Positions 3,091 to 29,034 of a stretch of DNA of 64,000 bases are shown piece after piece. A program made the position numbers and the translations under genes. The notes beneath the pieces are model-generated. The model saw only the letters and a program-made list of their open reading frames with translations, was not told the DNA's origin and ran no database searches. Position 1 is the stretch's first letter. Every line of letters starts with the position of its first letter. Source of the DNA: Obrimoposthia wandeli (Eukaryota); NCBI GenBank assembly GCA_977020255.1, contig CDROCS010000636.1, positions 1 through 64,000 of the forward strand. Reading direction: 5' to 3'.

Positions 3091-3099
3091 TGTTGGTTT

Positions 3100-5063: not shown

Positions 5064-7170
5064 TGTTAGATTTAGAAATTGAAATTGATAAAAAATTAAA
5101 TAATTTATACTAAAATAAAATCATGAAAACAAGGTTAATAATATTTAAAATTAAGTTAAAATATTTAGAGGATAAAATCAGGGGTAAATATTAATAGGAC
5201 CACGAGGTGGTAGCAATCACCGTTATATATAAGGTTAAGTTAATTAAGTAAAAGTGCAAAAAAGAAATCAGCAAACAAACTATAGAAAAGGAAAGTCAAA
5301 GATTAATCAAATCAAAAGAAAATCCAGAAAGAAGAAATTATTGTAAGTTGCGATTATTGATTAAAATCCGTTTTACTTTCTTTTTAGCTGTCAATCTTAG
5401 TGACAGGAAACGTCACAACCAAAATTTCAATTTCTATATTTTCAGCTGTCAGGATAGAGTGGCTTTGAGTGACAGGAAACGTCACAGCCAAAATTTCCAA
5501 TTTCTATATTTTCAGCTGTCCAGGATAAGTGGCTACAGCGCTCTAGCCTAAGTGGGTAAAATTACTATAGAACAATTTTCTTTAAGTCAACTAATTTAGA
5601 AAAAAAACAAATTGAAGTCGAATGAAATCGAATATAATTGAAAGGTTGAAACAAATAATTGAAGTCAATATAATTGAAAGGTAGGAAACAAATAATTGAA
5701 ATCAATATAATTGAAAGGTTGAAACAAATAGTGAAGTCGAATATAATTGAATTGGAAAAGACAAATAATTGAATACAAATAATTGAAGAGTCGTTGAATA
5801 CAAATAATTGAAGTCGAATCTAATTGAATAGTTGGAAACAAATAATTGAAGTCAGAATATAAGTCGAAGAAGGTTGGAGACAAGTGAAATCGAATATAAT
5901 TGAAGTAAAATCTGGATTGAATAAAGACAAATTGAAGTCGAGACAAATTGACGGACAGACCAACATATCTCCGACAAATCATTAACCGAGAGTCCAAGCA
6001 GAGCCAACCCTCTGACAGCCCACGGATCCAGATCTCGGGAAAAACTCTAGGATTGGATAGGTAAGACGACTCATATAAATTCATTCATTGTCAGAAGTTG
6101 ACAATTCGATTACTCTCATTCATTGTCCGAAAGTGACAATTCGTTACTCTAATTCATTGTCCAGGTGACAATTCGTTACTCTCATTCATTGTCAGAAGGT
6201 GACAATTCGAAATACTCTCATTCGTTGTCGAAAGGCGTGTTCGTTACTCTCATTCATTGTCAGAAGGTGACAATTCGATCTCATTCATTGTCAAAGGTGA
6301 CAGTCATTCGATCTCAATTTATTGTCAAAGGTGACAATTCAAATTACTCTCATTCAAATTGTCCAGAAGATGACAATTCGATACTCTCATTCATTGTCGA
6401 AGGTGACAATTGATACTCTCATTCATTGTCCGAAGGTGGCAATTCGTTACTCCATACAAATCATTGTCCACAGTTGACAATTCGGCCTCCATACAAATCA
6501 TTGTCCACAGTTGACAATTAGGCTTTTATACGAATCATTGTCCACAGTTGACAATTCTCGTCTGAATTCATAACACTAGAATGAAAGTTACCCAAGTTAA
6601 AAAGCTTTACCCAACACGATCTAAGTTTAAGTTGAAAGAAAGTTTTAAAAGAGTTGTGTTATAAATTAACCAACCTAGAAAGAAGTTTTGCATTCGCACC
6701 TTTATTGTCATAAGAATAAAGGTTTAACCTCAAAGTTCAAGCCGATAGCAAAGTTAAATTGTTGAGAATCTGTAACGTGAGCTTATTCTCGAGTCAGAGG
6801 AATAACTCTAAAATCTCGATCACCCCGAACACGTAAAATCGAGTACGTGGTTCATCCCCACTTGTTGTAGAGACTTACAGAAGTCTTAGGAATTTTACTA
6901 TACTTTTTAGAAAATACGTACATAAACGTATTGTTGTGTTCAGTTTAGTGTGCTACCAATAAACGATTTCCTACATTAGAAAACGCGTTGTTTTTGAACC
7001 TTCAGATTAAAGACGTCAAACCAAACACCTTCAGATAAACAAGAGAGATAGGCAACCATAACACTAAGTAGGCCACGACCAACTTTAAGACCTGCTTCTA
7101 TTCGAACTCACGTTGGGGCCCTCCGCACATAAGAGGATCTGTACAAGTTCATCGTATAGAAACCCCAACA
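5064..7170 (+). repeat. 5' LTR (2107 bp)
   Basis: Starts TGTTAGATTTAG, ends AAACCCCAACA; collinear with 26747-29034; internal tandem arrays at ~5590-5940 and ~6085-6560. Confidence 0.92.
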
Positions 7171-7178
7171 TATTAAAG

Positions 7179-7196
7179 TGGTGCCCCGAGTGAGGA
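7179..7196 (+). promoter_or_regulatory. Primer-binding site, most similar to the complement of the elongator tRNA-Met 3' end
   Basis: TGGTGCCCCGAGTGAGGA, 8 nt after the LTR end. Its reverse complement ...CCTCACTCGGGGCACCA resembles metazoan elongator tRNA-Met 3' ends as I recall them (...CCTCACACGGGGCACCA). Confidence 0.75.
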
Positions 7197-7224
7197 CGCT
7201 CGTCGGACACAGCGAATTCACGTA

Positions 7225-8330
7225 GAATAAGTTTCAGATAATTGAGGAATAGAGTTTCAAGGTAAATAGAATAAGTTCAGATATTGAGAATAAGTTTCAG
7301 AGAATAGAGTAAGTTTCAGGTAAAATAGAATAAGTTCAGATATTGAGAATAAGTTTCAGAAAGTAGAATAAGTTTCAGGTAGAGAATAAGTTTCGGAGAT
7401 GTAAAATGAGAATAAGTTCAGATGGCTGAGAATAAGTTTCAGATAATTGAGAATAAGTTTCAGGTAAAATGAACAAGTTCAGATATTGAGAATAATTTCA
7501 GAGAAATAGATAAGTTCAGATATTGAGAATAAGTTTCAGATAATTGGTAAGTTTCAATTAAATAGAATAAGTTCAGATATTAAGAATAAGTTTCAGATAA
7601 ATTGAGAATAAGTTTCAGCAGAAGAAGATATAAGCAAATTTAGATAAGAATTTGATAAGTGTTGAGAAATCAGTAAGATTTGTTCCTCGAAGTTAAGATT
7701 TGATAAGTTTTGAAATCAGTAGATTTGTTCCTCGAAGTTAAGATTTGATAAGTTTTGAGAAATCAGGTGGGTGTTCCTCGAAGTTAAGAAAATTTGATAA
7801 GTTTTGAAATCGAGTAGAATTTGTTCCTCGAAGTTGAGAAATTTGATAAGTTTTGAGAAATCGAGTAGATTTGTTCCTCGAAGTTAAGAATTTGATAAGT
7901 TTTTGAGAAATCGAGTAGATTTGTTCCTCGAAGTTAAGAATTTGATAAGTTTTGAGAAATCGGTAGATTTGTTCCTCGAAGTTAAGAATTTGATAAGTTT
8001 TGAGAATCGAGTAGATTTGTTCCTCGAAGTTAAGAATTTGATAAGTTTTTGAAATCGGGTAGATTTGTTCCTCGAAGTTAGAATTTGATAAGTTTTGAGA
8101 AATCGAGGTAGATTTGTTCCTCGAAGTTAAGAATTTGATAAGTTTTGAAAATCGGGTAGATTTGTTCCTCGAAGTTAAGAGTTTGATAAGTTTTGAGAAA
8201 TCGGGTAGATTTGTTCCTCGAAGTAAGAATTCGATAAGTTTTGAGAAGTCGAGTGGATTTGTTCCTCGAGTCCAGTAAATTTGATAAAGTGAGAATCGAG
8301 TGGATTGATACTCGAGTGTAATTAATTGAA
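7225..8330 (+). repeat. 5'-leader tandem arrays (gagaataagtttcag-type at 7225-7640; ~48-bp unit at 7670-8290)
   Basis: The 48-bp unit gtagatttgTTCCTCGAAgttaagaattTGATAAgttttgagaaatcg; 12 intact TTCCTCGAA copies between 7683 and 8222. Confidence 0.9.
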
Positions 8331-8657: not shown

Positions 8658-10375
8658 TTGACTGAATTATTTGGTGACATAAACCCAGAAGAATTTGAAA
8701 TTGCCAATCCAGTAGTGATTGAAGAAGTTCAAGCATTGAATAATATTGAAGAAATAGTTGAAGATATAGTTGAAAATATGGCTCACCCAGGAGCTCAAGC
8801 AGATATTAATGCAGGAAATAATGTAGGTGACATGAATGCCGAACAGTTGGCACAAGCCTAAATGCGACGTTGAGAACCCAATTTTTCAGGATCATTGCAG
8901 ATTACAAAGTTTAAAGGAGATGAGGAAAGTATTTGTGACTTCCTCGCAGAATATTCGAGTTGTGCAGATGTTCAAGGATGGAACGATAAAGAAAAATGTG
9001 TCCGAGTACAGGCACACTTAACCGGATTAGCACTTGAAGTGTATAAACATTTGACAGAAGCAGAACGTTTAGACTGGCCAACGTTGGAAAATGCTTTTAT
9101 TGGAAAATTGGTATTAGGAGACTTAGCCAAAGTAAATAAGCGACTCATGAGAGAACGGAAACAGAAACATGATGAAGGCGTGAATGAATACGCGTATGTT
9201 TTGAGAACCTTGGCCGCAAGAGCGTACCCAAGAAGAATAATGAGAAATCAGGACGGTAATCCTGTAGCTCAAGAAGCACAAGTAGCGGAAAATGACCGGA
9301 ACCAAAATGAAATGGCAGAGGTTTTGTTAGATATATTTAGAGGAGGATTGAAAAAGGATATTAAAGTGTTATTAGCAGTATCGGATACAAATGATTTTGA
9401 TAACGCCGTGCGAAAGGCGAGAGAGATTGAGAAAAATATAAAAATAACGCAGTATTGGCAATTTACGCAATGACTGCAGGTGACGACGATAAGACAAAGG
9501 TCTTCGTGAATAAAACAGAACTGAGTAATTTTCAGAATCGAAATTATGGACAAAATAAGTTTGAAAAAGTAGATGAATCCAGTAACGGAAATAGAGATAA
9601 TTTCCGAAGTAGGAATCGAGATGATTCCAGAGGTAGAAATAATAGTGAGTCTTGGAACAGGAATCGAGATGATTCAAGAGGTAGAAATGGTAATGATTCG
9701 TGGAATAGAAATAGAGATGATTCCAGGAATAGATTTAATAGAGATAATTCAGGAAATCGCCAACCTTGGAGAGGAGACGATAGGAATTATAACGCAAACA
9801 GAGGAGAGCGAAGTGACTCTCGATTTGGAAATAATACAGGAAGTAGTGACGGAAGATTCAATAATCGAGGAAGCGGTTTTGAATCGAATTTCCGAAGAAA
9901 TGATTTTAGAGGACGATATGATAATAGACAGAATAGTTGTCGAGTACAGTTCGCAGATGAACAAAATAAGATAGATATTCGAGGGAGAATAATGTGTTAC
10001 ACGTGTAAACAAATGGGTCACTATTCGAGAGACTGTACGAGGAGTAAAGAGTTCGGAACTAACAGATTTGGAAATAATAATTTCGGTAATAATAATTTTG
10101 GAAACAATTATAGAGGATATAATTCACCTCCGCCATGGAATAGAGGTGGTGGATATACTCCACAGCCATGGAGACCGAATAATCAGTATACAGATAGACA
10201 ACAGTCACCAGGTAGATACAATAACTATGCAGACAGACAGCAAGGAGCTGAGAGATACAATAATTACGTAGGACAGCAAGGAGCTGAGAGATATAATAAT
10301 TCCGGTAGATATAATAATAATAATGTTGACAAGACAAATAGTCGTGAGTTCGCCGAAACCGAAAGGAAATTTTAG
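8658..10375 (+). CDS. gag: Gag (capsid domain, R/N/G-rich linker, CCHC zinc knuckle), frameshifted
   Basis: FKGDEESICDFLAEYSSCADVQGW..K...HLTGLALEVY retrotransposon capsid pattern; CYTCKQMGHYSRDC (CX2CX4HX4C) at 9994-10036. The true start may lie upstream (~8440). Confidence 0.85.
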
Positions 10376-10907
10376 TTATGTAAACGATGACAGCGATAGG
10401 AATCGCGAGACCGAGCTTCGACGCGAAATAGATTTTGAGGATAGTGATAGTAAATTTGAACGAATGTTGGGAATAATTAAAGATTCACCACATACAAAGA
10501 TGGCGAATTCATCTACGTTGTCGAAACAAGAAAAAGGTCTACACTCGAGAGAAGAGATGAATGATTTAATGAATAAAATATTAGAAGCGTATGAGACACC
10601 AATAGAGAAAACGTGTAACGCACAACCTATGACTGAGCATGTAGAAGCAGCGAGAAATGCTACGAGTATGGAAAATGTAAAAAAGATAATTAGTGAAGCT
10701 AAGGAGACGTTAAATCAACCGTTAGATGAAACGAGTGAAGCTCCAGAAGTTTTGGCCAAATTGCAAACAATTAAAGTGCACCGATTGGAAGAAGTGCGAG
10801 CAGAATTGGTTAAACATAGTCATGATAACTTGGGTTACAAAGAAGTACCACGAGGACTATTGAAAGGTTATGGTCGTTACGTACAGAGATCAAACCAAAA
10901 AGGAACG

Positions 10908-11139
10908 ATGAAAATTTCGCTTCGATTAATTTCCGGACAGATAATACATGAAAAACTTAACGTGTATCAAACAATGAAAACGATTCGGAAAAAAGTTGGC
11001 CGAGAAACTTGAAATTGATGGAATGAATATGTTGTTCCATTATAAAGGGAGATCACTAGATGATGAGGACGTACCAGTCGAGTGTGGATATCCGATAGGA
11101 AATGAATTAGAGGAAAAAATTGATGTCATCACTGTAGGA
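10908..11139 (+). CDS. Ubiquitin-like domain in the polyprotein, split by a +1 frameshift at ~10998
   Basis: Removing one G joins MKISLRLISGQIIHEKLNVYQTMKTIRKKV-AEKLEIDGMNMLFHYKGRSLDD, which aligns without gaps to ubiquitin [52 protein letters not shown]. No C-terminal GG. Confidence 0.7.
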
Positions 11140-11819
11140 CGTCAAGAGTTAGTAGATAATGAAGGATTAACGGAGATATTAAATTCTGCGTTGGAAATGA
11201 TAAAAACGCCTATAGAAATTTTAGACAGTTCAAGCGAAAGCGGAGATAATGATGTAGCTGAAGCTTGGAACAAGACATCCACACCAGAACCACGTAGCTG
11301 AATTACAAGACATGAATTTAGAAAATGAGTTGACAACTCCAGTGGTCGAGGTACCGCCAGAACCAGATATAATTCAAATCAGACAAGATGAAGTCACGGA
11401 TACAGCTAACCAAGTGAGACAAAAACGAAAACCGTAACCCAACTAGTAGGAGAAGACGAAATCTCCGAAATTGTAGATTTAGATTCACCAATTTGGCATG
11501 CTGCATACAAAGATAGACAAGCGGAGCAGATGATGCGACAAAGTGAAGAGATTGGCCATGAAGAAGGACCAAGTCAAGAGATACAGTATAATGGTGAACC
11601 GTATGATCCAGGAGAGAATCAAACTGAGTATCAGTATTTTCGAAGAGGACCTGGAAGACCTAGAAAGGACGGAAGTATATTACGAAATGTTCTAACTGCA
11701 CCACAAACTGATGAAGAGAGACATCTAAGCATTGGACAGTTAGCAGCGTCATTAGAGCAGTATAGTGCAGAGAGGAATGAAGATATCAGAGGTGATATGA
11801 ATTCAGAAGCTCCAAGTAG

Positions 11820-12200
11820 TAAAGATATACTTACGGGAATTCTCAGGCAAGTGAAGCCGAAGTTGTTCAAAATGTACAGAGATGAAACAACCGATATAAC
11901 AGACAATTTGACTAAAGCAGTTAGATCACAGATGTCTGCAGTAAAGAGAATGACCGCGAATCATGTATACCATGCATCGATAGATAGATTTTACGACGGT
12001 GAAGTTTTAGCGAGATTATGTGGAAATCAGACTACAAATAAAAAGTTAATTACAGCAATCACATATCTATGTTTCCAATTGACGGAACGAACGAGCCAAC
12101 CTCACGAAGTCAAACAAGGAATAAATGAAGCGATGTATTTGATCGAGAATGTATTACAGAGACGAATTGACGAAAACGGAGGTTGGGCAAAATTAAGTGA
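11820..12200 (+). CDS. Putative Bcl-2-like domain in the polyprotein
   Basis: YLIENVLQRRIDENGGW resembles BH2 (TYLNDHLEPWIQENGGW in Bcl-xL); KLITAITY sits at BH1-like spacing upstream; the NWGR motif is degenerate; a hydrophobic segment follows. Confidence 0.55.
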
Positions 12201-12312
12201 CTACGCTAAAACCATTGTGGAAATGAACGAAGACGATGACGAACAATGTCATGAGAATCGTCAAAGAGAAAATAAACAATACCGTCCGAAAGAGAGAAAC
12301 AATCAACCAAAT

Positions 12313-14180
12313 ATGTCCACAACAATGATGATGATGTTAGTAATGTTCATGGGAATGCAACAGGAATCAGGACTGATAGCATACGACTGTAGCATACCAA
12401 AGATGGGACAAAAGTATTCACTGCTTGACAGCGAAGACTGTCCAGAATCACAACCGTCAAAATTAGAAGTTAAAGGTGTTGAAAACTACTTTGTGTATCA
12501 GGATGTTGATAAAGTACAAGTAGAAGTGAAAGAATGTTCAATCCATTCAAGTTATCACGAATTCTATTGTGGCCATAGAAGTTTTATGTCGGAAATCACA
12601 CCTACCACACCGTACAAAGCACATAAGGTTTTGCCGAGAGATTGCGAAGACGCATTTCGAACGGGAACAATAGAAGTAGACAAGAATTACAAACCTGATG
12701 TAAAAATTGGAGTAAGACGATACGAAACAGTCACGAGAGTCGGACAACGATGGGCTGATGGATCTTGTGACGGAGGAACAAAAAACGTGCGTGGAACCAA
12801 AGTAACAGAGTTAGTAATGGACGTAACTTACAAAATCGAATTAAAAACATGGACCGCCAATTTTGATAAAAAGACACAACTAATGATGAAGTATCCAGAA
12901 TGTAAAATGACAGATACATCTTGTTTTACAGGCGAATCCACAATTGTGTATCACGTGAATCCGAAACAATGCTCTTTAGTATTTTTGAAAGAGATTAGCT
13001 TTAACAAAATAAAAGGATTCCTGTATAATAAAGATGGAGAAGGATTCCTGTATAATAAAGTTGGAAAAGGATTGCTAAATGAAACAAGACCAATTCCAAT
13101 GACAAAGACACCTACACTGTTAATGGCAACATCAATAGAAGAAGGATTGATATTTATTAAAAAGAGAAACAAAGCGCGATGCGGAATGACTGTTAGTACT
13201 ACAAACTATCCAGCAATAGTTTTGTCCAAAGAAGCAATAGCATTGGCAGAAACCAAGCTAAAACCAAAAAATATGCAGCTACACACGTATTTTAATAATA
13301 AAATTGATTTCTATTATCATAAAGGATTGATGCAAATGGAACAGTTATATCGGATGATGATCGAAAGAGATTGCCAGCTAAACAAAGAGATCGTAAGAAC
13401 AAAGTTAGCATTAGCTATTACGAATCCAGACATGGTAGCACCATTATTACCCTTGGATGAAGGAGTATTTGCTAAAACCATGGGAGAAGTATTGTATACT
13501 TACAAGTGTAATAAAGTAGAGGTACAGTTGAGAAAAACAGATCGATGTACGAGTGAATTGGCAGTAACGTATAATTTAAAAGATCTTTTGTTGAACCAAT
13601 CACGAGAATGATACTTCCAAAAGACACTCCAACTAAAGAAATCAGCTGCTCTAATATAATGGCACCTGAATATCAGATGACGAATGATCTATGGATAACG
13701 TTACCTGATCGAAAGCCAACGCAAAACCCCAGCGATGATAAAAATGACGAATCTTAAAGGTAAAATGAAATTCGAAGCGGTGGAAAATATGGAGAACGCA
13801 GGATTGTACAATGAAAAAGACTTAAAAGCGGCATGGAACGAAATAATGTTTCCAGTAAAAAGAGCCAGAGTACTTACGGAGATGGTACATCGAGCATTAC
13901 CGCCAGGAGCTAGATATGCGAATTTTGATATGTTGTTATCGCCAAGTCATTTCAAGGAAGCAGCACATCAGACACTTAGAAAGTTGTGGGGGAAATTCCT
14001 TGTTTTAGGACAATTATTTTCGGGTATCATAGGTATTTATGTTATAATTAAATTTGTGCAGGTAATTATAGCCCAGGTGTTGTCTACGTATAGTTTATAC
14101 AGGATAACCGGAATCACCTGGCAACTTATAATTGGATGTTTTCCATTTTTAGCAAAATATCTAATGCACCATCATCACGA
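12313..14180 (+). CDS. env: Envelope glycoprotein of chuvirus (Jingchuvirales G)-like type, two frameshifts (~13595, ~13730)
   Basis: Internal signal-like MMMMLVMFMG then LIAYDC; Cys-rich ectodomain (YCG, GSC, CG..TTNYP, LY..MI..DCQL...KLALA..NPD, GEVLY.YKC..VEV..R.T..C..EL.V); C-terminal TM pair FLVLGQLFSGIIGIYVIIK...G.TW..I. Confidence 0.8.
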
Positions 14181-14529
14181 GAACGAGTTGCAAGCCCTCA
14201 AGAAGGAACAACACCAAACGAGAACCATGATGCGAGAACCAAAAAACTATCGAGACGACAACGACGACGATAATGATAGCCCAGGAGTATATGCAAAGAT
14301 ACCAGGAAAACCAAAGATTCCGTTACCAGACAAGGAAGAAGTGGCGTTAAACCTATATCCAATGAAGGAACTAAAGGAAGAGAAGGAAAAGTTCAAGAGA
14401 GGCATCTTAATGATAAGATGGCCTAAAGTGAGCTACAGTGAGATTCCACAAGCAGAGGGAAAAGACAAAAAAGATAATTCCAGAAGAATTCTGAAGTCTA
14501 GGATATCAAATGAGAATCCAAATGCTCCA

Positions 14530-14830
14530 CCCCAAGTAGCAGTAACATTGAACGGAAGAGAATATCTTGCCGAAGTTGATACTGGATCCGCAGTATCAGT
14601 ACTGAGTAAAGAAATCTTGTCATCAAAAGAATTAAGAGAAGTATGTCCTAGAAAATAGACATTTGTTAACGTAAATGGTACAGATGTAGTGTCGGAAGGA
14701 ACACTGAAATGTTCATTGAATATCGATGGAAGAGCATTGCAGTTAAATGCTAGAATATTCACAGATTGCGGTAGTCCAGTCATGATTGGGATGGACGTAA
14801 TAAGAATGTTTGAAGGAATAATTATACTAC
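14530..14830 (+). CDS. Retropepsin-like aspartic protease, copy 1 (in-frame TAG at 14656)
   Basis: LAEVDTGSAVSVL (DTG at 14578), VNG flap-like segment and IGMD; same frame on both sides of the stop. Confidence 0.8.
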
Positions 14831-15059
14831 CAAACAACAAGAGTTATAAGAATGACAGTTCAGTGAGAGAGATAAAAATGTTGAGAGGACCTATAGTCGA
14901 AAAGGAAAAATACACTACGTTCCGTATGGGAAATTTGTACCAAGACAAAAAACAGGAAGCGCTAGTAAAGTCGATACTTCACTACAAAAACGTAAACCTC
15001 GGACCACAAGAGATGACGAGGAGAAAAATAACATATGTGAATCTGTCAGAAAAGGATCC

Positions 15060-16050
15060 CATGAGATTCGAGAAAAAGAGACGAAATATATTAGAACTGT
15101 ACTATTCAAAAGAAATGGCACGTAAAATGGCAAGATCAGGTTTAGAAATGTTAAACGCGACAAGCAGTTATGGTCATGAGATAGTAGTACGATGCGTATG
15201 GTGTAGAGTAAAGTTTAGAGAGTGGGAAAAGAATGAAAACCCAATGAGACGTCATAAAAGAGATGCACCAAATTGTCCATTTCTTTTGAAACTGAAAACG
15301 TCAAACGTACCAGAAATCCAAAAGGGAAAAGCACCCGATTTCGATTACAGCGACGAGATTCCAAAAGGAAAATCAGCTCTAATAACAGGTAGAGTAATAA
15401 CGAATAGTCGAATTGAAGACATATTCGAAGTTATGCGAGAAGTGAACGAATGTGACGAACAGTATCGAGAAATAACTTTCGAAGATCCAAGACTTAAAAA
15501 ATTGGCAAAAAGGGACTTTTGCTATAAAAAAGGATGGTAAAGACGTAATTAAATGCCACAAGTGTAAAAAAGAACGAATTATCGACAGATATACTCTTGA
15601 GCTACCTAAGAAAATTTTACATCATGAATTTTGCGAATTTTGTACTTTTAAAAACAAAATAAAGCAAAAAGAACAGAAAACCGAATGTATAATCGAATAC
15701 CAAATCACACGGAAAGAGATTTTGGCTCAACAAGACACACCGGTAGTGTCATTCGTGAGAAGGTTATATCCAAAAGAAGCAGAAAGAATCAGAGATTTGG
15801 TAGAATTAAAAATAAAAACTACGCGAAATGGATACGGGACAATTTTTGAATTACTAAAAGATAAAGATGACAGTACAATTGAAACAAAAGAGAAAGAGTA
15901 CATAAATGAACTAGAATACGTACTAGAAGATCCGGAATGCGCAGTTTGCATGGTCAACAAAATAGAAGTTGCCTTTCTACCATGCGGACATGTAAGAACA
16001 TGTCGGAGATGTGCGAATGAAATGGTATCATGTCCGATTTGTCGAAGAAT
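15060..16050 (+). CDS. IAP-like module: BIR1, diverged BIR2 and C3HC4 RING
   Basis: BIR1 CVWC-X16-H-X6-C (15193-15276). BIR2 LAKRDFCY..KDVIKCHKC-X18-H-X6-C (15502-15643), split by a frameshift in an A-run at ~15530 and then in frame with pol. RING CAVC...FLPCGH..TC..CA....CPICR (15938-16042). Confidence 0.85.
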
Positions 16051-16159
16051 AATAGATCGACAAGTGAGAAACATTAGATTTCACTATCCAAACAAAGGAA
16101 GTGGACCGACAGAGTGTAATAATTCGATAAATACAATATACCATATGGGAAATATAAAT

Positions 16160-19100: not shown

Positions 19101-19560
19101 AAATATTTACCTTCATGTTTATATGCTTACAGGAATTCAGTTCGAGAGGCGACGGGTCACACACCATTCTATCTGATGTATCTCAGACAGAACAATATGC
19201 CGATGGATCTGGAGTGGACCAAGCCAACATCTCAGTATCTAGAAACTGAACAATACATTGTCGTCATGAAGGAAAGATTACAAGATGCTTGGACCAAAGC
19301 CGGATTGAAGTTGAAATTCAATCAAGAAGGTTACAAGGAACAATACGACAAAAAAGCAAAACCACATGAATTTAGAGTCGGAGATCAAGTGATGATATTT
19401 TATCCAGTCATCGAACCAGGTCTATTGTTTAAACTTCATAGACCATACAAAGGACCATACAAGGTGATCCAGACAACCTCAACAAATTTGAAAGTAATCA
19501 ACGAGGAGAATCGGAACAAGGAACCGATGATTGTACATGCAAATCGATGTAAATTAGTAC
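16160..19560 (+). CDS. pol: Pol: protease 2, reverse transcriptase, RNase H, integrase with GPY/F motif (frameshift ~18810)
   Basis: LIDTGA (16220); RFCIDFRELN, LDLQSGYWQI, YIDD (17435); TDASNYAVGAVL, EKECLAIV, TDHKPL; HHCC zinc finger; MDILGP, TDQGKNF, YHPQTDGLVERFN; YKGPYKV. Confidence 0.97.
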
Positions 19561-19745
19561 CAAATAAAGATAATGCATCACGATATGAGTTAAGATCACA
19601 GAAATTGAAGCCAAATACCAATACCATTAAACTTACACGAATGGTAAGTGATCGGAACTACATAAACATGATGACGAGTGGTAGCGAGGAAAAACCAGCG
19701 AGAATTGGTATGCTCAGAATGAAGCACCAAGAGGAAAAGGAAGTA

Positions 19746-20712
19746 ATCCGACACATCGCACCACAAGAGATATTAGAAGAAGATGAAGAGATAATAGTTG
19801 TTTTCGAAAAAACACAACCAACAGATGTGGCTAAAGAAGTCATTGTGAAAGATGCACTGACAAACGAATTTCTGTGCGAACTTAGAGTGTCATACTACGA
19901 CGGAAATACATTAATCGCAGCACTATATCAAAACTCCAATGTGTTTACGACTGAGAAAGTGATAATCGAAATCACATTGACACCAAACATAGTTGCATGG
20001 CAGAACTATGACAGTACTGAAGCAGGACTAGCCAGTCAGGAAGAAAAGGAACCGGCCGGTGGTCACATACTGCATGGTACACCAAAAAGACTCAAACAAG
20101 AATACCACGATGTAATAATGGTATTACGTAATTCACATGGGAAAAGAGATATCATGAGAGTTCATTTAATCGACGCAGACACCGAAAAGATAATTTGTCA
20201 GATGGACACCAAATACTTTGACGGAAAGACAATTGTATGTTGTATACCAGAATCTCACCGGTTAGACACAGATCAAACGGAAGTATCTGTAAGGTTGAGC
20301 GTAATAGAAGGATTTCATTCGCCAACCCAACCGGAAGTGACCAACAATAAAATCATCAAAGCAACGGCAGAGTTACGCATTGACAGCGGATACCGGAAGT
20401 GGGAAGCTAAAAATAAAAAACCACAAAGAATCAATATGATCCGAGAACAAGTGACCAACTCAATCCAGCCAAAATATCATGCTGAAATAGTATCATCCGC
20501 GCCAAGTGTGATTACATCGATAAACGACGAAATTATAATTTTACTAAAAAATCGATGGCCGTCATCAACCGAGATACGAGTAAATTTAATTAATTATGCG
20601 AAAACACCGATATCTAAGCTGAATGTTACCTATTTCGATGGATTATCCATCATGGGTAAATTGGAAACAATTGTCATGTGCTATGGAGCACAGTTCCAAG
20701 TTGAGATACTTA
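19746..20712 (+). CDS. Three tandem ~80-aa beta-rich repeats, possibly TIG/IPT (Ig-like) domains, after integrase
   Basis: Repeats share I...P......(D/E)(E/V)I(I/M)(V/I)...N......V...........Y(Y/F)DG.(T/S)(L/I); Y(Y/F)DG at 19893, 20214 and 20631. Confidence 0.5.
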
Positions 20713-20912
20713 AAGATAGCGTAATACCGTATCCGATTCACAAATACGAAGGGGAAATCAATCCAATTATTCTAACCCCTTCATTAATTTCAGTTCAGAC
20801 AGACATACCAGAATACCCTTCGAGCGAGTCTAGTCAAGACAGCGAACCGGAAAGTAACGATACAGAATAAACAGAATCCGAAGATAACATAATAGAGCGA
20901 TTCGGAAGAACC

Positions 20913-21659
20913 ATGGAGGTTGAATTCGCTAAAGAGAACAGAAAAAGACAAAACATAGAATTCGTGAAACAGAATATACAAGAAAGACGAATTAAATCTG
21001 CAGAAGAAACCGAGTCGGAAGAAGACTCAACAAAGGAACAGACATCAGAGACAAAGATGAATATCTCTCCAGCAATACGAATGCTGAGAGGAAAGAAACT
21101 GGCGAAACTATCCAACATCGACGAACAGATAGAGAAGAGATTAGAAAGACTAAAACTCGAAGAGTCAGAATTATTGCCACCAATGAGCGAGATCATTCCA
21201 GATAAGTTATACCTCGGAAATGTGGAAGATGCAACAGATGAAAAGAAACTGTTGGAACAAGGGATAACATACGTGATCAACGTTACAATGAATCACAAAT
21301 CACAATATCAGACAATCAGAGCTATGACATTAAGAGTAAAAGACTCAATGGACGCTAATCTTCTCGAATGGTTCGTAGAAACAAACGAAATACTTCACAG
21401 AGAACTCCGAAACCAAGGAAAAGTGTTGGTACATTGTCAGAAAGGAATTTCTCGATCAGCAACTCTAGTATTAGCATATCTAATAAAGACTAGACGAATG
21501 CAGGTACTAGAAGCGCTGAAATACCTACAGGAGAGAAGAAGTATTGCAAACCCAAATCTTAATTTTTTGGGACAGTTGGCAAATTACCAACTTCTGTTGC
21601 AAGAACAAAGACGGATAGACGACATTCCTGAGGATCCAAAGGAAAAGAATTTCCTCTAA
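20913..21659 (+). CDS. Dual-specificity protein phosphatase, catalytic motif intact
   Basis: MSEIIPDKLYLG, GITYVINVT, V.D, VLVHCQKGISRSATLVLAYL (HC at 21432), NPNLNFLGQL. Confidence 0.92.
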   Translation: MEVEFAKENRKRQNIEFVKQNIQERRIKSAEETESEEDSTKEQTSETKMNISPAIRMLRGKKLAKLSNIDEQIEKRLERLKLEESELLPPMSEIIPDKLYLGNVEDATDEKKLLEQGITYVINVTMNHKSQYQTIRAMTLRVKDSMDANLLEWFVETNEILHRELRNQGKVLVHCQKGISRSATLVLAYLIKTRRMQVLEALKYLQERRSIANPNLNFLGQLANYQLLLQEQRRIDDIPEDPKEKNFL

Positions 21660-21668
21660 GCATTATCG

Positions 21669-22931
21669 TTGACCGGGTTATTCTTAGCCGGAGTCGACAA
21701 AATTACACAGATAATGCCAAAAGTATTTTTATGTCATCCAGGAGATATAGATACTGCTGGATTAAAGTTCCACAGTATCAACCGAGTAATCAACATTGTT
21801 GAAGTCGGAAACGAAATAATCAGTCTGTGTCAAAATACTGAAGATGACACCACTCGATACATACATGCTTCCAATCGAGAGATAAACGATGCACAACAAC
21901 ATCTGACGAAATTGACTCAAACCATCCAAGCCGAAGTCACAGAAGGAAACGGCGTTCTGATATATCAGAAAAAAGGTACAATGTTAGCGCCTACCATAGG
22001 TGTATCCTTGTTGGTAGAGTACCATGGTCACACGCCAGAAGAAGCGATGGTCTACATCAAACAGAATAGACCAGATACGGAATTCAAACCGTTACTCGTT
22101 CGAGAAATAGAGAAGTACGCCGAAAAGAGGAAGCAACAACGAGAAACAAATGAAGCTACAACAACAGTGCCCAGCTTTCAATACCAAAGATTGCTAGCGA
22201 TAGGCTTGTTAAGTTGTCTAATGCCGATAACGGGAGCACAAGAGATAGGCTCCAACCACGGAAATAGTTCCTGGTTCAACGAAATCCACAACTACACCAT
22301 ACAGTACCATACGCCGGCACTGATGATGCTATTAGTGTTGTTAGGATTAATTGATGTGTGGATCATCCGAAAATGTCTCCGATCTATGAGAACCGACAGT
22401 AAAAGATTTCAGTTTGTAAAGATGAAAAGACCAAATGGACCGACGAACAAAGTGCTTGTGTATCTAGACGAAAGGATCGAGGATAACATAGTAAATGAAG
22501 CGATATTTTATCCACAAAACAGAATACTGAATCAATTCCGAATAGATTACGAAGCTGACCGACAGCGCACACTTGACCGAATATCAACAACATTCGCCGG
22601 ATGCAAGCGAAGAAAACGAATTGTAAAGGAAATAAAAAAAGATGCTGATACAAAAGGACCGACGTATATATTCGACGGCGATGTCATCAAAACACGTGAG
22701 TATGGAAGTAAGAGAGTGATAATTGAAACGATGGAAGGACATAAAACATGCTTGTCCGCTAAAAATGGATTCGGAAAGTTGATGATACAAGGTAAACAGG
22801 TACAGTTGATTATCGGGAAAAATGGAATCGAGGAGATGTCAAAACAACGACAGACAACAAAACGATCCAATCAGAAACAGATATCTCTCAAACGAATGAT
22901 AATTAAAACCCTTTGCAAAAGGTCAGTCTAG
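21669..22931 (+). CDS. ORF with a catalytically dead DSP-like domain, a small signal+TM segment and an unknown basic domain
   Basis: ITQIMPKVFL..INRVINIV..GVLIYQKKGTMLAPTI..L..Y.G.T.EEAM.YIKQNRP parallels the upstream DSP but lacks the HCxxGxxR Cys and Arg. Hydrophobic stretches LLAIGLLSCLMPITGA and LMMLLVLLGLIDVWII follow. Confidence 0.6.
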   Translation: MTGLFLAGVDKITQIMPKVFLCHPGDIDTAGLKFHSINRVINIVEVGNEIISLCQNTEDDTTRYIHASNREINDAQQHLTKLTQTIQAEVTEGNGVLIYQKKGTMLAPTIGVSLLVEYHGHTPEEAMVYIKQNRPDTEFKPLLVREIEKYAEKRKQQRETNEATTTVPSFQYQRLLAIGLLSCLMPITGAQEIGSNHGNSSWFNEIHNYTIQYHTPALMMLLVLLGLIDVWIIRKCLRSMRTDSKRFQFVKMKRPNGPTNKVLVYLDERIEDNIVNEAIFYPQNRILNQFRIDYEADRQRTLDRISTTFAGCKRRKRIVKEIKKDADTKGPTYIFDGDVIKTREYGSKRVIIETMEGHKTCLSAKNGFGKLMIQGKQVQLIIGKNGIEEMSKQRQTTKRSNQKQISLKRMIIKTLCKRSV

Positions 22932-22955
22932 GCCCTGTGCACCGTTGCACAAGGA

Positions 22956-23621
22956 TTGATCTACGGAGTAGTAATTGGATTAGTACTACAAGCCATGCCA
23001 ACCAGTAAAGCTGAAATGATGACATTATACGAGTATAATCTACATTTGAGAAATCTAGACAACACCCTCGAAATAATCAAGACGTCCCACAGTAAAGCCG
23101 TAAGGATCATGTGTGTAAAAGGATGTCCAGGACGAATGTGTATAGTTCCAGCGACCGAAATGAAAACACTTAATGGACATTATGGAGTTAGTATTGTCAC
23201 ATGTGAAGACTACACATTTGGACAAACTAAAATAGTACTTCTCAGTGACATGTCCAACCAAAGTGCACACAAATTTAAAATATTAACCATCAAGAGTAAA
23301 TGAATACCAGCAGTACGTTATGGTATTCTAGAATTGGTTAATCCAATACTCGCACTGATCATTGGATTCATAATATTAATATTACTCATCTTGTTTTGTT
23401 GTACAAAGATAGAGTTGAGATCAAAAAAGAAACGTCATGATCTTGCAAGACGAACAGGTCAAATGAATTTACAAAAATTCAACACAAGTATACCAAGACC
23501 ACCATTCCTAGATGAACCAGCACCGGAGTACCAGCCAACGATATATGAACATATCGAGGAAAGACCGTACTATATGAGTAATTTGAGTTGTTTCATTGAA
23601 ATTCCTGAGTTTAGGAATTGA
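22956..23621 (+). CDS. Putative type-I membrane protein (signal, Cys-containing ectodomain, TM, Tyr-motif tail); in-frame TGA at 23301
   Basis: LIYGVVIGLVLQAMPTSKA signal-like; ILALIIGFIILILLILFCC TM followed by RSKKKR; tail contains TIYEHI. Confidence 0.5.
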
Positions 23622-23636
23622 ACGATCATAGGAATC

Positions 23637-24854
23637 ATGCTGATCATACAAATTACCACTACCAAGGCTAGTTATGAGATCATGATCAGTAAATGGAGAC
23701 AAGATGTAATACGGGCATTATACATAGAAATCCCTCTATTAAAAACAAATCACGTAGTAGACATTCATCTACAGACGTCAGCAACCGACAATATCGATCA
23801 GAAATTGTATGTCATCCGACAGGTCAGAATAAAGATCGACCAAAGTACACCTTACTACAAACTGATATTATTCAATCACGAAAGAGTGTTATACCTACGG
23901 ATAACGATATCAAAAAGGAAGCGGATTATCCAAAGTATCCGCACAAAGTCATTAATATTGCCTAGAGATGAGCGCATCTGGAAAATTGTCGACAGGATTA
24001 TGATCACAGGTAGACGACGTAAAGCCGTATGGAATTCCGTTAGAATATTTTTCAGATTACTAGAAACTGACAAAGTAACAGTATCGTGTCCCAATCCAGA
24101 TGGCGGAATCAGATTCGAAATCCAAAACCAAATGTTAGTACCACATTTTGATACAGAATGTCTGTGTAATCGAATTCCCAGTAACACTACAGAGACCTCG
24201 ACCATAATCATGGTAATAACAGGTGAAATATTCTACATAACTCTAAGATACCAGAACCGTCGATTTCGTAGGTCCGGTATAAGTATCAAACCCAGGAAAA
24301 TCATTCCCAAAAAACCAATCCTAGTCAAAAAGAAGGCAAAGGTAAACGAAAGTAAACACCATTCCAAAAAGCCGAAAGTGATCAGAACAAAGACAGAAGC
24401 GAAAGAAAAAGAGCTAAAATCCAGAAACCAAAGTACAGTTATTAAGAGGACAAGAGTGAGGGGAACGATCCCACTAGATCCCAAAAATTATTTCCAATCC
24501 AAAATAATAATACCTGTTCTACCAGAAACAAAACACCCAAATCCACGAATTTTTAGAAAATCGGACATAATACATGGAAACCGATCAAAACCCATGGAAA
24601 TGTCATTCGAACCGACAAACAACAAAATGAAGTATGAGTATCAATCATCAGATAGCAGAGTAACAGCGGTCAATGCTCTAATTGGAATGGCCGTAGTGTC
24701 AACAGCAGTGGTTCTATTGACAGTCGTGTGCGTGAAAGGCAGTCAAGTATGCCCAAGAATACGGCGAAAATGCGAAGGATTGCGATGCTGTGACATACCC
24801 ACCATGGAGGAAGTGGAATTGCGACCCTTACCTCCGCCTCCCATCAAGATATGA
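23637..24854 (+). CDS. Putative type-I membrane protein, unknown function
   Basis: 405-aa ORF with an N-terminal hydrophobic segment, Lys-rich region, TM ALIGMAVVSTAVVLLTVVCV and a Cys/polyproline tail. Confidence 0.55.
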   Translation: MLIIQITTTKASYEIMISKWRQDVIRALYIEIPLLKTNHVVDIHLQTSATDNIDQKLYVIRQVRIKIDQSTPYYKLILFNHERVLYLRITISKRKRIIQSIRTKSLILPRDERIWKIVDRIMITGRRRKAVWNSVRIFFRLLETDKVTVSCPNPDGGIRFEIQNQMLVPHFDTECLCNRIPSNTTETSTIIMVITGEIFYITLRYQNRRFRRSGISIKPRKIIPKKPILVKKKAKVNESKHHSKKPKVIRTKTEAKEKELKSRNQSTVIKRTRVRGTIPLDPKNYFQSKIIIPVLPETKHPNPRIFRKSDIIHGNRSKPMEMSFEPTNNKMKYEYQSSDSRVTAVNALIGMAVVSTAVVLLTVVCVKGSQVCPRIRRKCEGLRCCDIPTMEEVELRPLPPPPIKI

Positions 24855-24977
24855 TAAGTCAGAGGAGGTTGTAGATAAATTAGTGTGTGAAATATGTAGA
24901 AATATCTAGAAGCGATTGTACAAATAGTAGAAATATATAAAACTCATGTAGAAATTAATCATCATCATGTATTTAGA

Positions 24978-25277
24978 ATGTCCGAAGAATGCCCAATATG
25001 TTTGGAAGATCTCACCGAACGAAGAACAAGACCCGAAACCTGCAACCATTTACACCACGAGGAATGTTTATCAACATGGATCAGAACTTATGGACAGTTC
25101 GGACATCCAACATACCCTTGTTGCCCTGTATGCAGAAGACAATTCGCAAGATTCATCATGTTAGAACCCAACCAAGAGGATGTATATGTACAGGTGGTAT
25201 TCTGTTGGAAGAATTTCGGAGAGTGTTGGTGTTACTACTGTTTGTCAGAACGACAAAATCCGACCACTTTTGTGTAA
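24978..25277 (+). CDS. RING-H2 zinc-finger protein 1
   Basis: CPIC...CNHLHHEEC..W...CPVCR plus a C-terminal CWK....CWCYYC cluster. Confidence 0.85.
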   Translation: MSEECPICLEDLTERRTRPETCNHLHHEECLSTWIRTYGQFGHPTYPCCPVCRRQFARFIMLEPNQEDVYVQVVFCWKNFGECWCYYCLSERQNPTTFV

Positions 25278-25337
25278 ACATCACACAATCACCAGTCCTC
25301 AATCGAGCCCAAATTCAACATCAACCCTCTCACAGTA

Positions 25338-25643
25338 ATGTCTGGAGAATGTTCCATCTGCTACGAGAGCATCGTGGACCTCTACACCAAGCCCAACAAC
25401 TGCGACCACCTTTTCCACATCGAATGCCTCGAGACGTGGATTCCCATCGCCAACAGCAACAATCCCCTCGACTTCCCAACCTGCCCGATGTGCAGAGCGA
25501 CCTTCTCAGTGCACTACGTGTACAACCAGGACAGCCTCCAAGCAGTGGTACCCATAGTACACTGCTGGAAAACTATCTGCGATTGCTGGTGCTCGTTCTG
25601 CGTGGAGGAGCGACGCACAGGCCAGCCCAACTCCCAGCAATAA
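25338..25643 (+). CDS. RING-H2 zinc-finger protein 2 (paralog of 1)
   Basis: CSIC...CDHLFHIEC..W...CPMCR plus the same CWK....CWCSFC cluster. Confidence 0.87.
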   Translation: MSGECSICYESIVDLYTKPNNCDHLFHIECLETWIPIANSNNPLDFPTCPMCRATFSVHYVYNQDSLQAVVPIVHCWKTICDCWCSFCVEERRTGQPNSQQ

Positions 25644-25984
25644 TCGAAGGTAACTTTCTGACTTGAACGTGACATCATGAACTACCCTGTGTATCGCATA
25701 CCGCGATAAATTAGCTACCATAATTGTAATCATAATTGTATAATCTTGTGAAACTGTAAAATGACCATTACCATTTTTATGTATGTTGTTTAACTGAAAT
25801 TGTAATTATTATACTGAAATTCTAAAAGACAATTTTTTATGCCTAGTGTGAATGTGTAAACATGCCTAAAATCGGAACAAAACTCGGTAGGATTAAAAAA
25901 CTAAGGGTTCGTTTTGAAACTAGAATTTTAAACTTTATAAATTAACGACGAAAACAGTCGAAAAGGAATCATTATTTTGTGCAG

Positions 25985-26482
25985 ATGAAGTGTTCAGTCT
26001 GCCTGGAGAAAATTTGGACGGCATCGGCATCCCCTGTCGGCTGCCGTCACAAATTCCACGAGTCGTGCCTCTATACTTGGGCCCGACTTCGACCCGAAGG
26101 CCACGTCACATGTCCGTTGTGCCGTGCTCCCTTCGCGGAGTGGACACTACAATGTCGCGGACGCCACAAGGGCACTCATTCGCTCACCAGCTGTATTGGT
26201 GGCGAACATTACCAATGCCCCAACTGCATCGCGCGCCGTCGCGACGCGAAACTCGCCCTCCGCGAAAAATGGCGATCAACCCGTGACTGCCGCTCATGGC
26301 AACGTGGTCGCCAAATATGGATCCAGAACCGCGGGGTCCACGGGCGGTACACGACCCTCTTCCACCCCAATCAGCACCTCAGCATGCCCCAGCAGATGGC
26401 CCTGTTCGAAGGCAGGACTCCATCATATCCAGACCTACCACTGGAGCAGGTCTTGCTGTTCTTAAAAGACAGAAACAATTGA
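25985..26482 (+). CDS. RING-H2 zinc-finger protein 3
   Basis: CSVC...CRHKFHESC..W...CPLCR plus downstream C....H.QCPNC; ATG at 25985. Confidence 0.85.
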   Translation: MKCSVCLEKIWTASASPVGCRHKFHESCLYTWARLRPEGHVTCPLCRAPFAEWTLQCRGRHKGTHSLTSCIGGEHYQCPNCIARRRDAKLALREKWRSTRDCRSWQRGRQIWIQNRGVHGRYTTLFHPNQHLSMPQQMALFEGRTPSYPDLPLEQVLLFLKDRNN

Positions 26483-26746
26483 CAAATCCTCGACAATCAT
26501 CCCTTGATCCTTTCCCTTGTGTAATTTTTAGTTTGACGTAGTAATAATGTATAAATTGAGACTTGTTCCAAATTATGCATTATAATTCCCACTAAAAACC
26601 GGGTTTTGGAAAAAAATTTTTTGGGCATGTTTGATGAATTGAATGACTGATTTTTGTAGGGATGGACCTAAAATCAACAGCCAGAGGCTTATAAGAGTAA
26701 AATCGATACGTTCCGGGGACGTAACTTTTTTGGAACCCCCGAGATA

Positions 26747-29034
26747 TGTTAGATTTAGGAATTGAGAAATTATTAAAAAATTAAATAATTTATACTAAAA
26801 TAAAATCCTTGAAAGCAAGGTTGAAAATTAAATATTTAAAATTAAGTTAAAATATTAGAGAATAAAATCAGGGGTAAATATTAATAGGACCACGAAGGTC
26901 GTGTGTAATGCGTTATATATAAGGTTAAGTTAATTAAGTAAAAGTGCAAAAAAGAAATCAGCAAACAAACTAAGAAAAAGGAAAGTCAAAAAATTAATCA
27001 AATCAAAAAGAAATCCAGGAAAAGAAGAAATTATTGTAAGTTGCGATTATTGATTAAATCGTTTACTTTCTTTTTTCAGCTGCCAATATTGAGTGACAGG
27101 AAACGTCACAGCCAAAATTTCAATTTCTATATTTTCAGCTGTCTAGGATAAGTGGCTTTGAGTGACAGGAAACGTCACAGCCAAAATTTCAATTTCTATA
27201 TTTTCAGCTGTCCAGGATAAGTGGCTACAGCGCTCTAGCCTAAGTGGGTAAGAAATTACTATAAGAACAATTTTCTTTAATCAAATAATTGCAGAAAAAC
27301 AAATAATTGAAGTCGAATATAATTGAAAGGTTGGAAACAAATAATTGAAGTCGAATATAATTGAAAGGTTGGAAACAAATAATTGAAGTCGAATATAATT
27401 GAAAGGTTGGAAACAAATAATTGAAGTCGAATATAATTGAAAGGTTGGAAACAAATAATTGAAGTCGAATATAATTGAAAGGTTGGAAACAAATAATTGA
27501 AGTCGAATATAATTGAAAGGTTGGAAACAAATAATTGAAGTCGAATATAATTGAAAGGTTGGAAACAAATAATTGAAGTCGAATATAATTGAAAGGTTGG
27601 AGACAAATTGAAGTCGAGACAAATTGACAGACAGACCAACATATCTCCGACCAAATCATTAACCGAGAGTCCAAACAGAGCCAACCCTCTGACAGCCCAC
27701 GGATCCAGATCTCGGGAAAAAACTCTAGGATTGGATAGGTGAGACGACTCATATAAACACAAATCATTGTCCGCAGTTGACAATTAGGTTTTATACAAAT
27801 CATTGTCCGCAGTTGACAATTAGGTTTCACGCAAATCATTGTCCACAGTTGACAATTAGGTTTCACGCAAATCATTGTCCACAGTTGACAATTAGGTTTC
27901 ACGCAAATCATTGTCCGCAGTTGACAATTAGGTTTCCATATAAATTTTCATACAAATCATTGTCCGCAGTTGACAATTAGGTTTCACGCAAATCATTGTC
28001 CACAGTTGACAATTAGGTTTCCATATAAATTTTCATACAAATCATTGTCCGCAGTTGACAATTAGGTTTCACGCAAATCATTGTCCGCAGTTGACAATTA
28101 GGTTTCCATATAAATTTTCATACAAATCATTGTCCGCAGTTGACAATTAGGTTTCACGCAAATCATTGTCCGCAGTTGACAATTAGGTTTCACGCAAATC
28201 ATTGTCCACAGTTGACAATTAGGTTTCCATATAAATTTTCATACAAATCATTGTCCGCAGTTGACAATTAGGTTTCCCACAAATCATTGTCCACAGTTGA
28301 CAATTAGGTTCCATATAAATTTTCATACAAATCATTGTCCACAGTTGACAATTAGGTTCCATACAAATCATTGTCCACAGTTGACAATTAGGCTTTTATA
28401 CGAATCATTGTCCACAGTTGACAATTCTCGTCTGAATTCATAACAATAGAAAGTTACTCAAATTAAAGAAAGCTTTACCCAACACGATCTAAGTTTAAGT
28501 TGAAAGAAAGTTTTAAGAGAGTTGTGTTATAAATTAACCAACCTAGAAAGAAGATTTGCATTCGCACCTTTATTGTCATAAGAATAAAGGTTTAACCTCA
28601 AAAGTTCAAGCCGATAGCAAAGTTAAATTGTTGAGAAATCTGTAACGCGAGCTTATTCTCGAGTCAGAAGAATAACTCTAAAATCTCGATCACCCCGAAC
28701 GTAAAATCGATACGTGGTTCATCCCCACTTGTTGTAGAGACTTACAGAAGTCTTAGGAATTTTTACTATACTTTTTAGAAAATACGTACATAAACGTATT
28801 GTTGTGTTCAGTTTAGTGTGCTACCAATAAACGATTTCCTACATTAGAAAACGTTGTTTTAAACCTTCAGACCAACAGACGTCTAACCAAACACCTTCAG
28901 ATAAGAAATAGAGATAGGCAACCATAACACTAAGTAGGCCACGACCAACTTTAAGACCTGCTTCTATTCGAACTCACGTTGGGGCCCTCCGCACACAAGA
29001 GGATCTATACAAGTCTCGTATAGAAACCCCAACA
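26747..29034 (+). repeat. 3' LTR (2288 bp)
   Basis: TGTTAGATTTAG...AAACCCCAACA; holds 8 near-identical 38-bp units (27301-27604) and ~17 units of a 36/48-bp array (27760-28430). Confidence 0.93.

Follow-up and report, generated by a model that had tools for sequence, protein, structure and literature searches.

A probable Burro-type GAG-ENV-POL Ty3/gypsy element carrying apoptosis- and signalling-related cargo in a triclad-like flatworm

The window analysed here comprises 64,000 nt of Obrimoposthia wandeli DNA (NCBI GenBank assembly GCA_977020255.1, contig CDROCS010000636.1, positions 1 to 64,000 of the forward strand) and contains a giant Ty3/gypsy element bounded by long terminal repeats (LTRs). 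At the level of its family, this element encodes Gag, Env and Pol in one polyprotein together with domains resembling regulators of apoptosis and of cellular signalling, followed by three separate RING-H2 genes. We consider that it is probably a Burro-type GAG-ENV-POL element that has recently spread in a triclad-like flatworm. Its features are as follows.

5064-29034, plus strand: whole Ty3/gypsy LTR element, 23,971 nt, with an internal region of 19.6 kb
5064..7170, plus strand: 5′ LTR, TG...CA, with internal tandem arrays, derived from another insertion than the 3′ LTR
7179..7196, plus strand: primer-binding site (PBS) of 18 nt, 8 nt past the LTR, complementary to the 3′ end of the host tRNA-Met(CAT)
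7224..8287, plus strand: two tandem arrays in the 5′ leader (units of 19/59 nt and 48 nt), from the sequence
8778..24854, plus strand: family-level single polyprotein frame of ~5,360 codons, broken in the window copy by stops and frameshifts
8778..10036, plus strand: Gag, with a Retrotrans_gag-like capsid and one CCHC knuckle at 9995-10036 (Pfam)
10902..11133, plus strand: ubiquitin/SUMO-like domain, read from the sequence as having no C-terminal di-glycine (Pfam, PDB)
11815..12216, plus strand: Bcl-2-like domain with BH1-like (12034) and BH2-like (12163) motifs (profile, Foldseek)
12313..14166, plus strand: class III (gB/chuvirus-type) Env, with a signal-like segment, an ectodomain and two C-terminal hydrophobic segments (Pfam PF24664)
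14530..14835, plus strand: first aspartic protease (DTG), immediately after Env (Pfam, motif)
15070..16045, plus strand: IAP module, with BIR1 (15070-15285), a degenerate BIR2 (15463-15649) and a C3HC4 RING (15938-16045) (Pfam)
16175..19562, plus strand: second protease, reverse transcriptase (RT; YIDD), RNase H (RH) and integrase (D, D, E intact) (Pfam, motifs)
19740..20717, plus strand: three tandem IPT/TIG immunoglobulin-like repeats, resembling the Rel dimerisation domain (structural model, fold searches)
21207..21590, plus strand: dual-specificity phosphatase (DUSP), MKP-like, HCxxGxSRS intact (Pfam, PDB)
21726..22109, plus strand: pseudophosphatase, lacking the catalytic Cys and Arg in 9/9 copies (Pfam, motif)
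22188..24854, plus strand: three tandem signal-peptide/ectodomain/transmembrane units, assigned to no family, the tail of the second bearing a PPxY-like motif at 23517 (signals by eye, hydropathy)
24978..25277, plus strand: RING-H2 gene a, separate open reading frame (ORF), with a YAG acceptor 1 nt upstream of its ATG
25338..25643, plus strand: RING-H2 gene b, separate ORF, with a YAG acceptor 2 nt upstream of its ATG
25985..26482, plus strand: RING-H2 gene c, separate ORF, with a YAG acceptor immediately upstream of its ATG
26747..29034, plus strand: 3′ LTR, TG...CA, agreeing with an insertion on contig C1933 in both its 5′ LTR and its target site

The assignment to Ty3/gypsy (Metaviridae) follows from the TG...CA LTRs of 2.1-2.3 kb, the tRNA primer site, the short target duplications of other copies and the protease-RT-RH-integrase order with intact catalytic motifs. 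Exact LTR-PBS junctions occur 4,626 times in the assembly, and exact-pattern searches retrieved 5,604 RT and 5,381 phosphatase matches, with all control patterns at zero. The assembly holds ~5,500 young copies which, at ~20 kb each, would represent ~110 Mb or ~8% of its 1.35 Gb, an estimate made on a total that includes bacteria and possibly both haplotypes. The first 21 copies fetched are collinear and 97-98% identical, save for one internal deletion each in three of them. Among 20 flanks fetched, 11 were unscorable, being either 3′ LTRs or 5′ LTRs with no partner, and 4-bp target duplications were found in 3/3 paired elements and 6/6 solo LTRs. As the LTR pairs of other copies differ by 0, 1 and 3 of ~595 nt, transposition was recent. 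Short-read contigs span 30/30 bins of the internal region in the source sample and 29/30 in a second sample, a marine metagenome. An initial annotation, made from the window alone, had described one LTR-bounded unit encoding all of these domains. This unit is real: Pfam, PDB, profile and fold searches recovered its domains, the weaker calls included, and the collinearity of the copies, with a phosphatase nearly as frequent as the RT, shows that copies with the same pol carry the cargo and that the latter was not brought in by nested insertions.

The window copy itself is a chimera of two insertions. It has no target-site duplication, its ORFs are broken by stops and frameshifts, and its two LTRs are separated by 16 substitutions and 12 gap blocks across 589 nt. 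It matches the C1933 insertion in its 3′ LTR, its target site and its interior but not in its 5′ LTR: only 1 of 595 nt differs between the window 3′ LTR and the C1933 5′ LTR, the 4-nt target site is common to both, and positions 9000-17000 differ by 1-11 substitutions per kb and include a shared stop at 14656. This chimerism, due either to mis-assembly or to ectopic recombination, concerns the window copy and not the architecture of the family.

The family encodes one polyprotein of ~5,360 codons, because other copies read through the breaks of the window copy. The ATG at 8778 is present in 13/13 copies, the junctions of the gag region are open in 10/13, 10/14, 11/13 and 10/13, those at 11301/11410 in 3/5, that at 14658 in 12/12 and that of the integrase in 18/20, while each of the five stops between 20870 and 23621 is read through in 8 or 9 of 9 copies. 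In contrast, the stops at 24854 and 25277 are common to 9/9 copies, and the RING-H2 genes are therefore separate from the polyprotein. A programmed frameshift within BIR2 (15476-15540) was considered and rejected: the offset was kept in 12/12 copies retrieved with a long query, but 10/13 copies retrieved with a short query read through, the frameshift having first seemed shared because the long-query sample was biased; no stable RNA structure was found 3′ of the offset site (z 0.66). The ratio of nonsynonymous to synonymous polymorphism (pN/pS), computed on BLAST-selected copies of a noisy assembly, ranges from 0.09 to 0.45 in 16/16 regions (0.00-0.24 for variants present in at least two copies), which shows purifying selection on all 16 regions, cargo included.

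In the front part of the polyprotein, the domain assignments vary in strength. The Retrotrans_gag match is weak (E 0.003, below the cut-off). In a natural copy, the ubiquitin-like domain matches Pfam with E 0.0015 and nearly all its PDB matches are ubiquitin, ISG15 or SUMO. The Bcl-2-like domain retrieved no match as a single-sequence query, and a four-sequence profile, whose aligned regions were picked partly by motif, matches Bcl-xL over BH1-BH2 (E 0.007). Its ten best Foldseek matches all belong to the Bcl-2 family, at E 0.29-0.65, with Bcl-xL ranked above poxviral Bcl-2. Env matches Monjiviricetes_fusion (1e-52 and 6e-28); this class III Env, located between gag and pol in a multicopy element, corresponds to the HSV/gB-type GAG-ENV-POL errantiviruses. 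The first protease has a weak Pfam match (E 0.018), its DTG being kept in 20/22 copies, and a protease-like domain occupies the corresponding place in 7/10 Env-bearing relatives. The BIR (4e-10) and RING (1e-11) of the IAP module match Pfam, BIR2 falling below the cut-off (E 0.006), and the best PDB matches of the BIR are NAIP, DIAP1 and XIAP.

Past the integrase, the repeats are predicted to adopt the IPT/TIG fold: the model of the region has a pLDDT of 81.5, and IPT/TIG folds rank first in both structure searches, the best Foldseek matches being BCAP-DBB, TonEBP and NFAT1. The per-domain fold check proposed in the initial annotation thus came out for the IPT repeats, and for the Bcl-2-like domain it gave the right family at high E-values. 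An IPT profile retrieved no PDB sequence, and out of 1.84 billion representatives it matched a single one, in the IPT part of the Rel-homology protein P0241 (E 3e-4), a divergent protein of 267 aa with no PDB sequence match that could itself be mobile-element-borne. TIG clusters came up in an Atlas search of the region at 0.89-0.90, but recognition was low and the result is weak; a search for host Rel genes (PF00554) gave no match, its control being silent too and the search hence uninformative. The pair of active and dead phosphatases noted initially is borne out, as the catalytic Cys and Arg are kept in the active DUSP and lost in its partner in 9/9 copies each. The DSPc Pfam matches are 2e-34 and 8e-6, and the best PDB match of the DUSP is DUSP10/MKP5 (E 5e-25), all 60 PDB matches listed being cellular. 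When proteins of 460-2,000 aa were searched for this phosphatase, a range that lies below long polyproteins, 1 of the 120 matches listed had an RT and none an integrase.

For the terminal ectodomain, two candidate identities were rejected: a bacterial heparinase-like domain, suggested by Atlas clusters with low shared-feature counts and taken as chance, and neurexophilin (Pfam E 0.02, below the cut-off). It shows no detectable similarity to the tails of the relatives described below. The three RING-H2 proteins match Pfam at 5e-9 to 3e-8. A YAG lies 0-2 nt upstream of each of their ATGs in 9/9 copies, compared with 50/442 ATGs across the element, a joint probability of ~0.001 for a pattern spotted post hoc. 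Planarians have spliced-leader (SL) trans-splicing (PMC10899757), and the RING-H2 accessory mRNAs may be spliced, perhaps SL-trans-spliced.

The closest published counterpart is Burro/GYPSM1 of Schmidtea and Dugesia, also a giant LTR element of triclads with thousands of copies, tandem repeats and a ~5,000-aa polyprotein (PMC6431247). The Burro polyprotein, of 4,873-5,140 aa, comprises Gag-CCHC, ubiquitin/SUMO-like and BCL2-like domains, an in-frame mononegavirus-like Env, a protease, a dUTPase-like domain and RT-RH-integrase, plus BIR, ankyrin and MATH domains; MATH, ankyrin and the number of CCHC knuckles vary within the family (PMC6431247). The element likewise shows a ubiquitin/SUMO-like and then a BCL2-like domain 5′ of Env (with weak but concordant E-values), a family-level single polyprotein of ~5,000 aa whose in-frame Env lies between gag and pol, and a BIR plus RING as in the Burro1 B-IAP, although it has two BIRs, the second degenerate. 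With its 23,971 nt and thousands of copies it also agrees with Burro in size and copy number, its internal region falling just below the review's 20-kb internal limit; Burro itself exceeds 30 kb, compared with 24 kb here. The front two-thirds of the element corresponds to the published Burro layout minus MATH and ankyrin. Whether this was a new family or a Burro relative had been left undecided in the initial annotation, and the published layout and the triclad-like host favour a Burro relative. The match to the described family is nevertheless not exact, as section 7 of PMC6431247 does not list the three IPT repeats, the DUSP and pseudo-DUSP, the three membrane units and the three RING-H2 genes. 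A literature search, which excluded Grohme 2018, Lee 2026 and Repbase, found no description of the IPT, phosphatase and RING-H2 cargo in Burro. Rel-like IPT repeats, an MKP-like phosphatase pair, RING-H2 genes preceded by splice acceptors and a host that is not a land planarian, and is possibly marine, were not found for Burro elements in the accessible papers. Some of the tail cargo may nevertheless have been recorded before (Burro-2/3/4). Elsewhere, BURRO1 is under piRNA control (PMC8532177), and Burro is named once in the accessible text of PMC11410931.

A second comparison is provided by the HSV/gB-type errantiviruses of flatworms, which share with the element a class III Env between gag and pol and long coding spans (14.5-18.0 kb in six S. 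mediterranea elements and 14.3-14.4 kb in two polyclad ones; PMC13524379). In the accessible text of that study their cargo is not treated ('Burro', 'accessory' and 'apoptosis' never occur), and its S. mediterranea elements would be Burros. The Env is collinear by eye with those of the six S. mediterranea GAG-ENV-POL elements and identical to Smed_errantivirus_4 at 35/100 gap-free positions, on a scale where five of the six pairs listed in PMC13524379 have 32-38%. In an RT-RH tree of 36 sequences, the element and 11 database relatives (P0015-P0017, P0019-P0023, P0029, P0031 and P0035, metagenome polyproteins taken from 120 pol relatives listed) form one clade with support 1.0. The pol phylogeny suggested initially yields this clade in a tree built without named Burro references. 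The element is the deepest branch of its 12 members, at 56-62% RT-RH identity. A fused gag-env-pol and a terminal membrane-anchored unit past the integrase are each found in 10/11 relatives, extra proteases are also present, the ubiquitin-like and Bcl-2-like domains recur, and Env is kept at 34-41% identity in 10/10 full-length relatives. Neither BIR nor DSPc gave a Pfam match in the 11 relatives. One of them, P0023, has a protease, one IPT-like repeat, ankyrins and a protease after the integrase, an arrangement resembling NF-kB/IkB.

Regarding the host, the dominant animal mitochondrion of the assembly uses code 9, and its nuclear copies are found together with the element on contigs C109 and C5. 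Its best COX1 matches are triclads (69-71%), and in a COX1 tree of 19 sequences, without dugesiid or marine-triclad references, it branches on the triclad side (UFBoot 96) and outside Geoplanidae (100). Burro hosts belong to Dugesiidae or Geoplanidae; the present host falls outside the latter, and none of the listed COX1 sequences is close to it. A marine habitat is suggested tentatively by one metagenome sample. The assembly is a mixture of a flatworm, with many long nuclear mitochondrial copies and nad1 adjoining cox1, and many bacteria; a second animal mitochondrion, of code 5, is placed with a snail by the COX1 tree.

Gypsy elements and membrane polyproteins are processed by proteases and signal peptidase, and class III glycoproteins mediate fusion. 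Starting from the priming site, integration signature, single frame, selection and domain folds, all of which are observed, the single polyprotein could thread the ER membrane and be cut by its own two proteases and host signal peptidase. Because the clade relatives share extra proteases and the terminal membrane unit but differ in cargo, we suggest that cargo occupies two variable slots, one between the proteases (holding the IAP in this element and ankyrins or zinc fingers in relatives) and one between the integrase and the terminal membrane protein (here the three IPT repeats and the DUSP pair). The released pieces would keep the expressing cell alive and quiet. The Bcl-2-like domain, for which the Env signal segment could act as a membrane anchor, and the BIR-BIR-RING would block apoptosis. 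The MKP-like DUSP may damp JNK/p38-type stress signalling, and its dead partner could be a trap or scaffold. The IPT repeats could be decoys titrating host IPT-type dimers (Rel/NFAT), S. mediterranea having seven divergent RHD factors (PMC13563047). The RING-H2 proteins would be ubiquitin ligases made from spliced, perhaps SL-trans-spliced, mRNAs, and Env could carry the element between cells, for instance into stem or germ cells. The role against host cell death proposed in the initial annotation is plausible, as the Burro1 BIR-RING is reported to guard stem cells against apoptosis (B-IAP; Lee et al. 2026, as cited in PMC13465017). The full scenario of an infectious, retrovirus-like element moving from cell to cell, with exchangeable protease-flanked cargo, Rel/NFAT decoys, an MKP with a dead partner and SL-expressed E3 ligases, in a clade that predates freshwater planarians, is put forward tentatively, and we regard it as doubtful.

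Several observations count against the Burro interpretation or against parts of it. Membership is drawn from layout, host and a by-eye Env comparison, Burro1-4 being compared by description only. The MATH and ankyrin domains of Burro1 are absent from the Pfam results on the element, and an 84-codon region of a size matching the dUTPase-like domain (16526-16777) gave no Pfam match, the published Burro call having been made with HHpred. One CCHC knuckle is found in 12/14 copies and none in 2, compared with two or three in Burro. The Env break at 13611/13699 is open in only 5/12 copies, and none of the 150 scored phosphatase copies has a complete frame (8 lie in natural frames of at least 3,000 codons, the longest of 4,722), so that the continuous ORF for which the initial annotation proposed a test holds for the junctions read across copies and not for a single scored copy. 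IPT folds are common, with ties at VIA Z 8.2-6.8 among bacterial, plexin, Met, BCAP and NF-kB domains, and the link of these repeats to Rel comes from the one match to P0241. All cleavage, topology and function steps proposed above are ones that we infer. One could envisage a separate flatworm GAG-ENV-POL lineage, a sister family that gained a Burro-like layout and BIR-RING independently. The deepest position of the element in its clade, at 56-62% RT-RH identity, and the lack of Pfam BIR or DSPc in all 11 relatives would fit this, as would the fact that GAG-ENV-POL elements are not monophyletic and occur, with the gB-type Env, in S. mediterranea, a polyclad and Macrostomum (PMC13524379), an occurrence that also makes a wider host range less novel. 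However, the ubiquitin/SUMO and Bcl-2 domains, the Env order and the BIR are all held in common with Burro (PMC6431247), the first two recur in the relatives, and the host falls on the triclad side, which makes an independent lineage unlikely.

A different objection would derive the cargo from large DNA viruses or Polintons, or explain the unit as nested elements wrongly assembled as one. Baculo-, pox- and polydnaviruses have accessory genes that include IAPs, vBcl-2, VH1, RING ligases and IkB-like proteins, so that similar pathways are targeted, and the initial annotation had called the cargo large-DNA-virus-like. The insertion indeed sits in a Polinton, the window copy is chimeric, and the second membrane unit weakly matches poxvirus 2L_N (E 0.003, below the cut-off). 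Nevertheless, the collinear cargo of the first 21 copies, the near-equal RT and DUSP counts and the short-read contigs of the second sample refute the artefact, and DUSP, BIR and Bcl-2 find their best matches among cellular proteins, in a PDB biased to human proteins. A viral source is therefore unsupported and the resemblance is one of analogy, and the cargo here lies mostly in a polyprotein; because of these cellular matches, capture from animal genes seems more likely, and the objection as a whole is highly improbable. Another alternative bears on function and does not conflict with Burro membership: Env may no longer serve for entry, the element being intracellular only and its cargo kept for host benefit, as in the mutualism reported for Burro1 (as cited in PMC13465017). 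However, Env has a pN/pS of 0.13 (0.08 for shared variants), comparable to the protease and RT, and its conservation in all ten full-length relatives also argues for a retained role; we hold the host-benefit explanation to be a real possibility, if somewhat short of an even chance. The reading as a Burro-type element is retained.

Other features concern the surroundings and the family at large. The insertion site lies inside a Polinton/Maverick-like element: the right flank of the window copy (29035-33660) has endonuclease VII and PolB matches and terminal repeats; by eye, in the locus C1933:67000-76900, the left flank of the C1933 insertion has ORFs resembling integrase, capsid, protease and ATPase, and its repeats match window 32909-33564 in inverted orientation. 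Fragments ~70-73% similar to the LTR ends (window 2796-3177; C1933 locus L097:273-515 and 1679-2006) suggest older related LTR families nearby, and diverged copies (L029-L044), whose identity across BIR-RING falls as low as 78%, show older subfamilies with the same IAP module. The tandem arrays within the LTRs have units of 69, 37/38, 32/36 and 85 nt and differ in type and number between the two LTRs; others lie outside the element at 3384-3694 (55 nt), 33136-33449 (26/78 nt) and 61562-62222 (16 nt). No polypurine tract adjoins the 3′ LTR in the window copy or in 5/5 other 3′ LTRs, and a C-rich run (26700-26746 in the window) precedes it in all of them. The priming tRNA-Met gene has 54 matches in total; on contig C2252 it lies in long tandem arrays with ~284-nt spacing, and it also occurs on contig C2837. 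A tRNA and Rfam search of the 64-kb window gave no match.

Burro1 is a reported case of a transposon aiding regeneration via a captured IAP (PMC13465017), and the present variant shows further cargo under selection. Through its phosphatase and IPT repeats, this cargo points to stress and immune pathways that limit flatworm retroelements. Which transcription factors act below TBK1 in flatworms is unknown (PMC13563047). The intact DUSP and the IPT domains could serve as baits for such pathways. The Burro expansion has been placed in land and freshwater planarians (Lee et al. 2026 as cited in PMC13465017), and if the host belonged to neither Dugesiidae nor Geoplanidae, it would date the clade's origin. 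If the proposed scenario is true, Burro-type elements would be older than the radiation of land and freshwater planarians and would have evolved a full counter-immunity kit.

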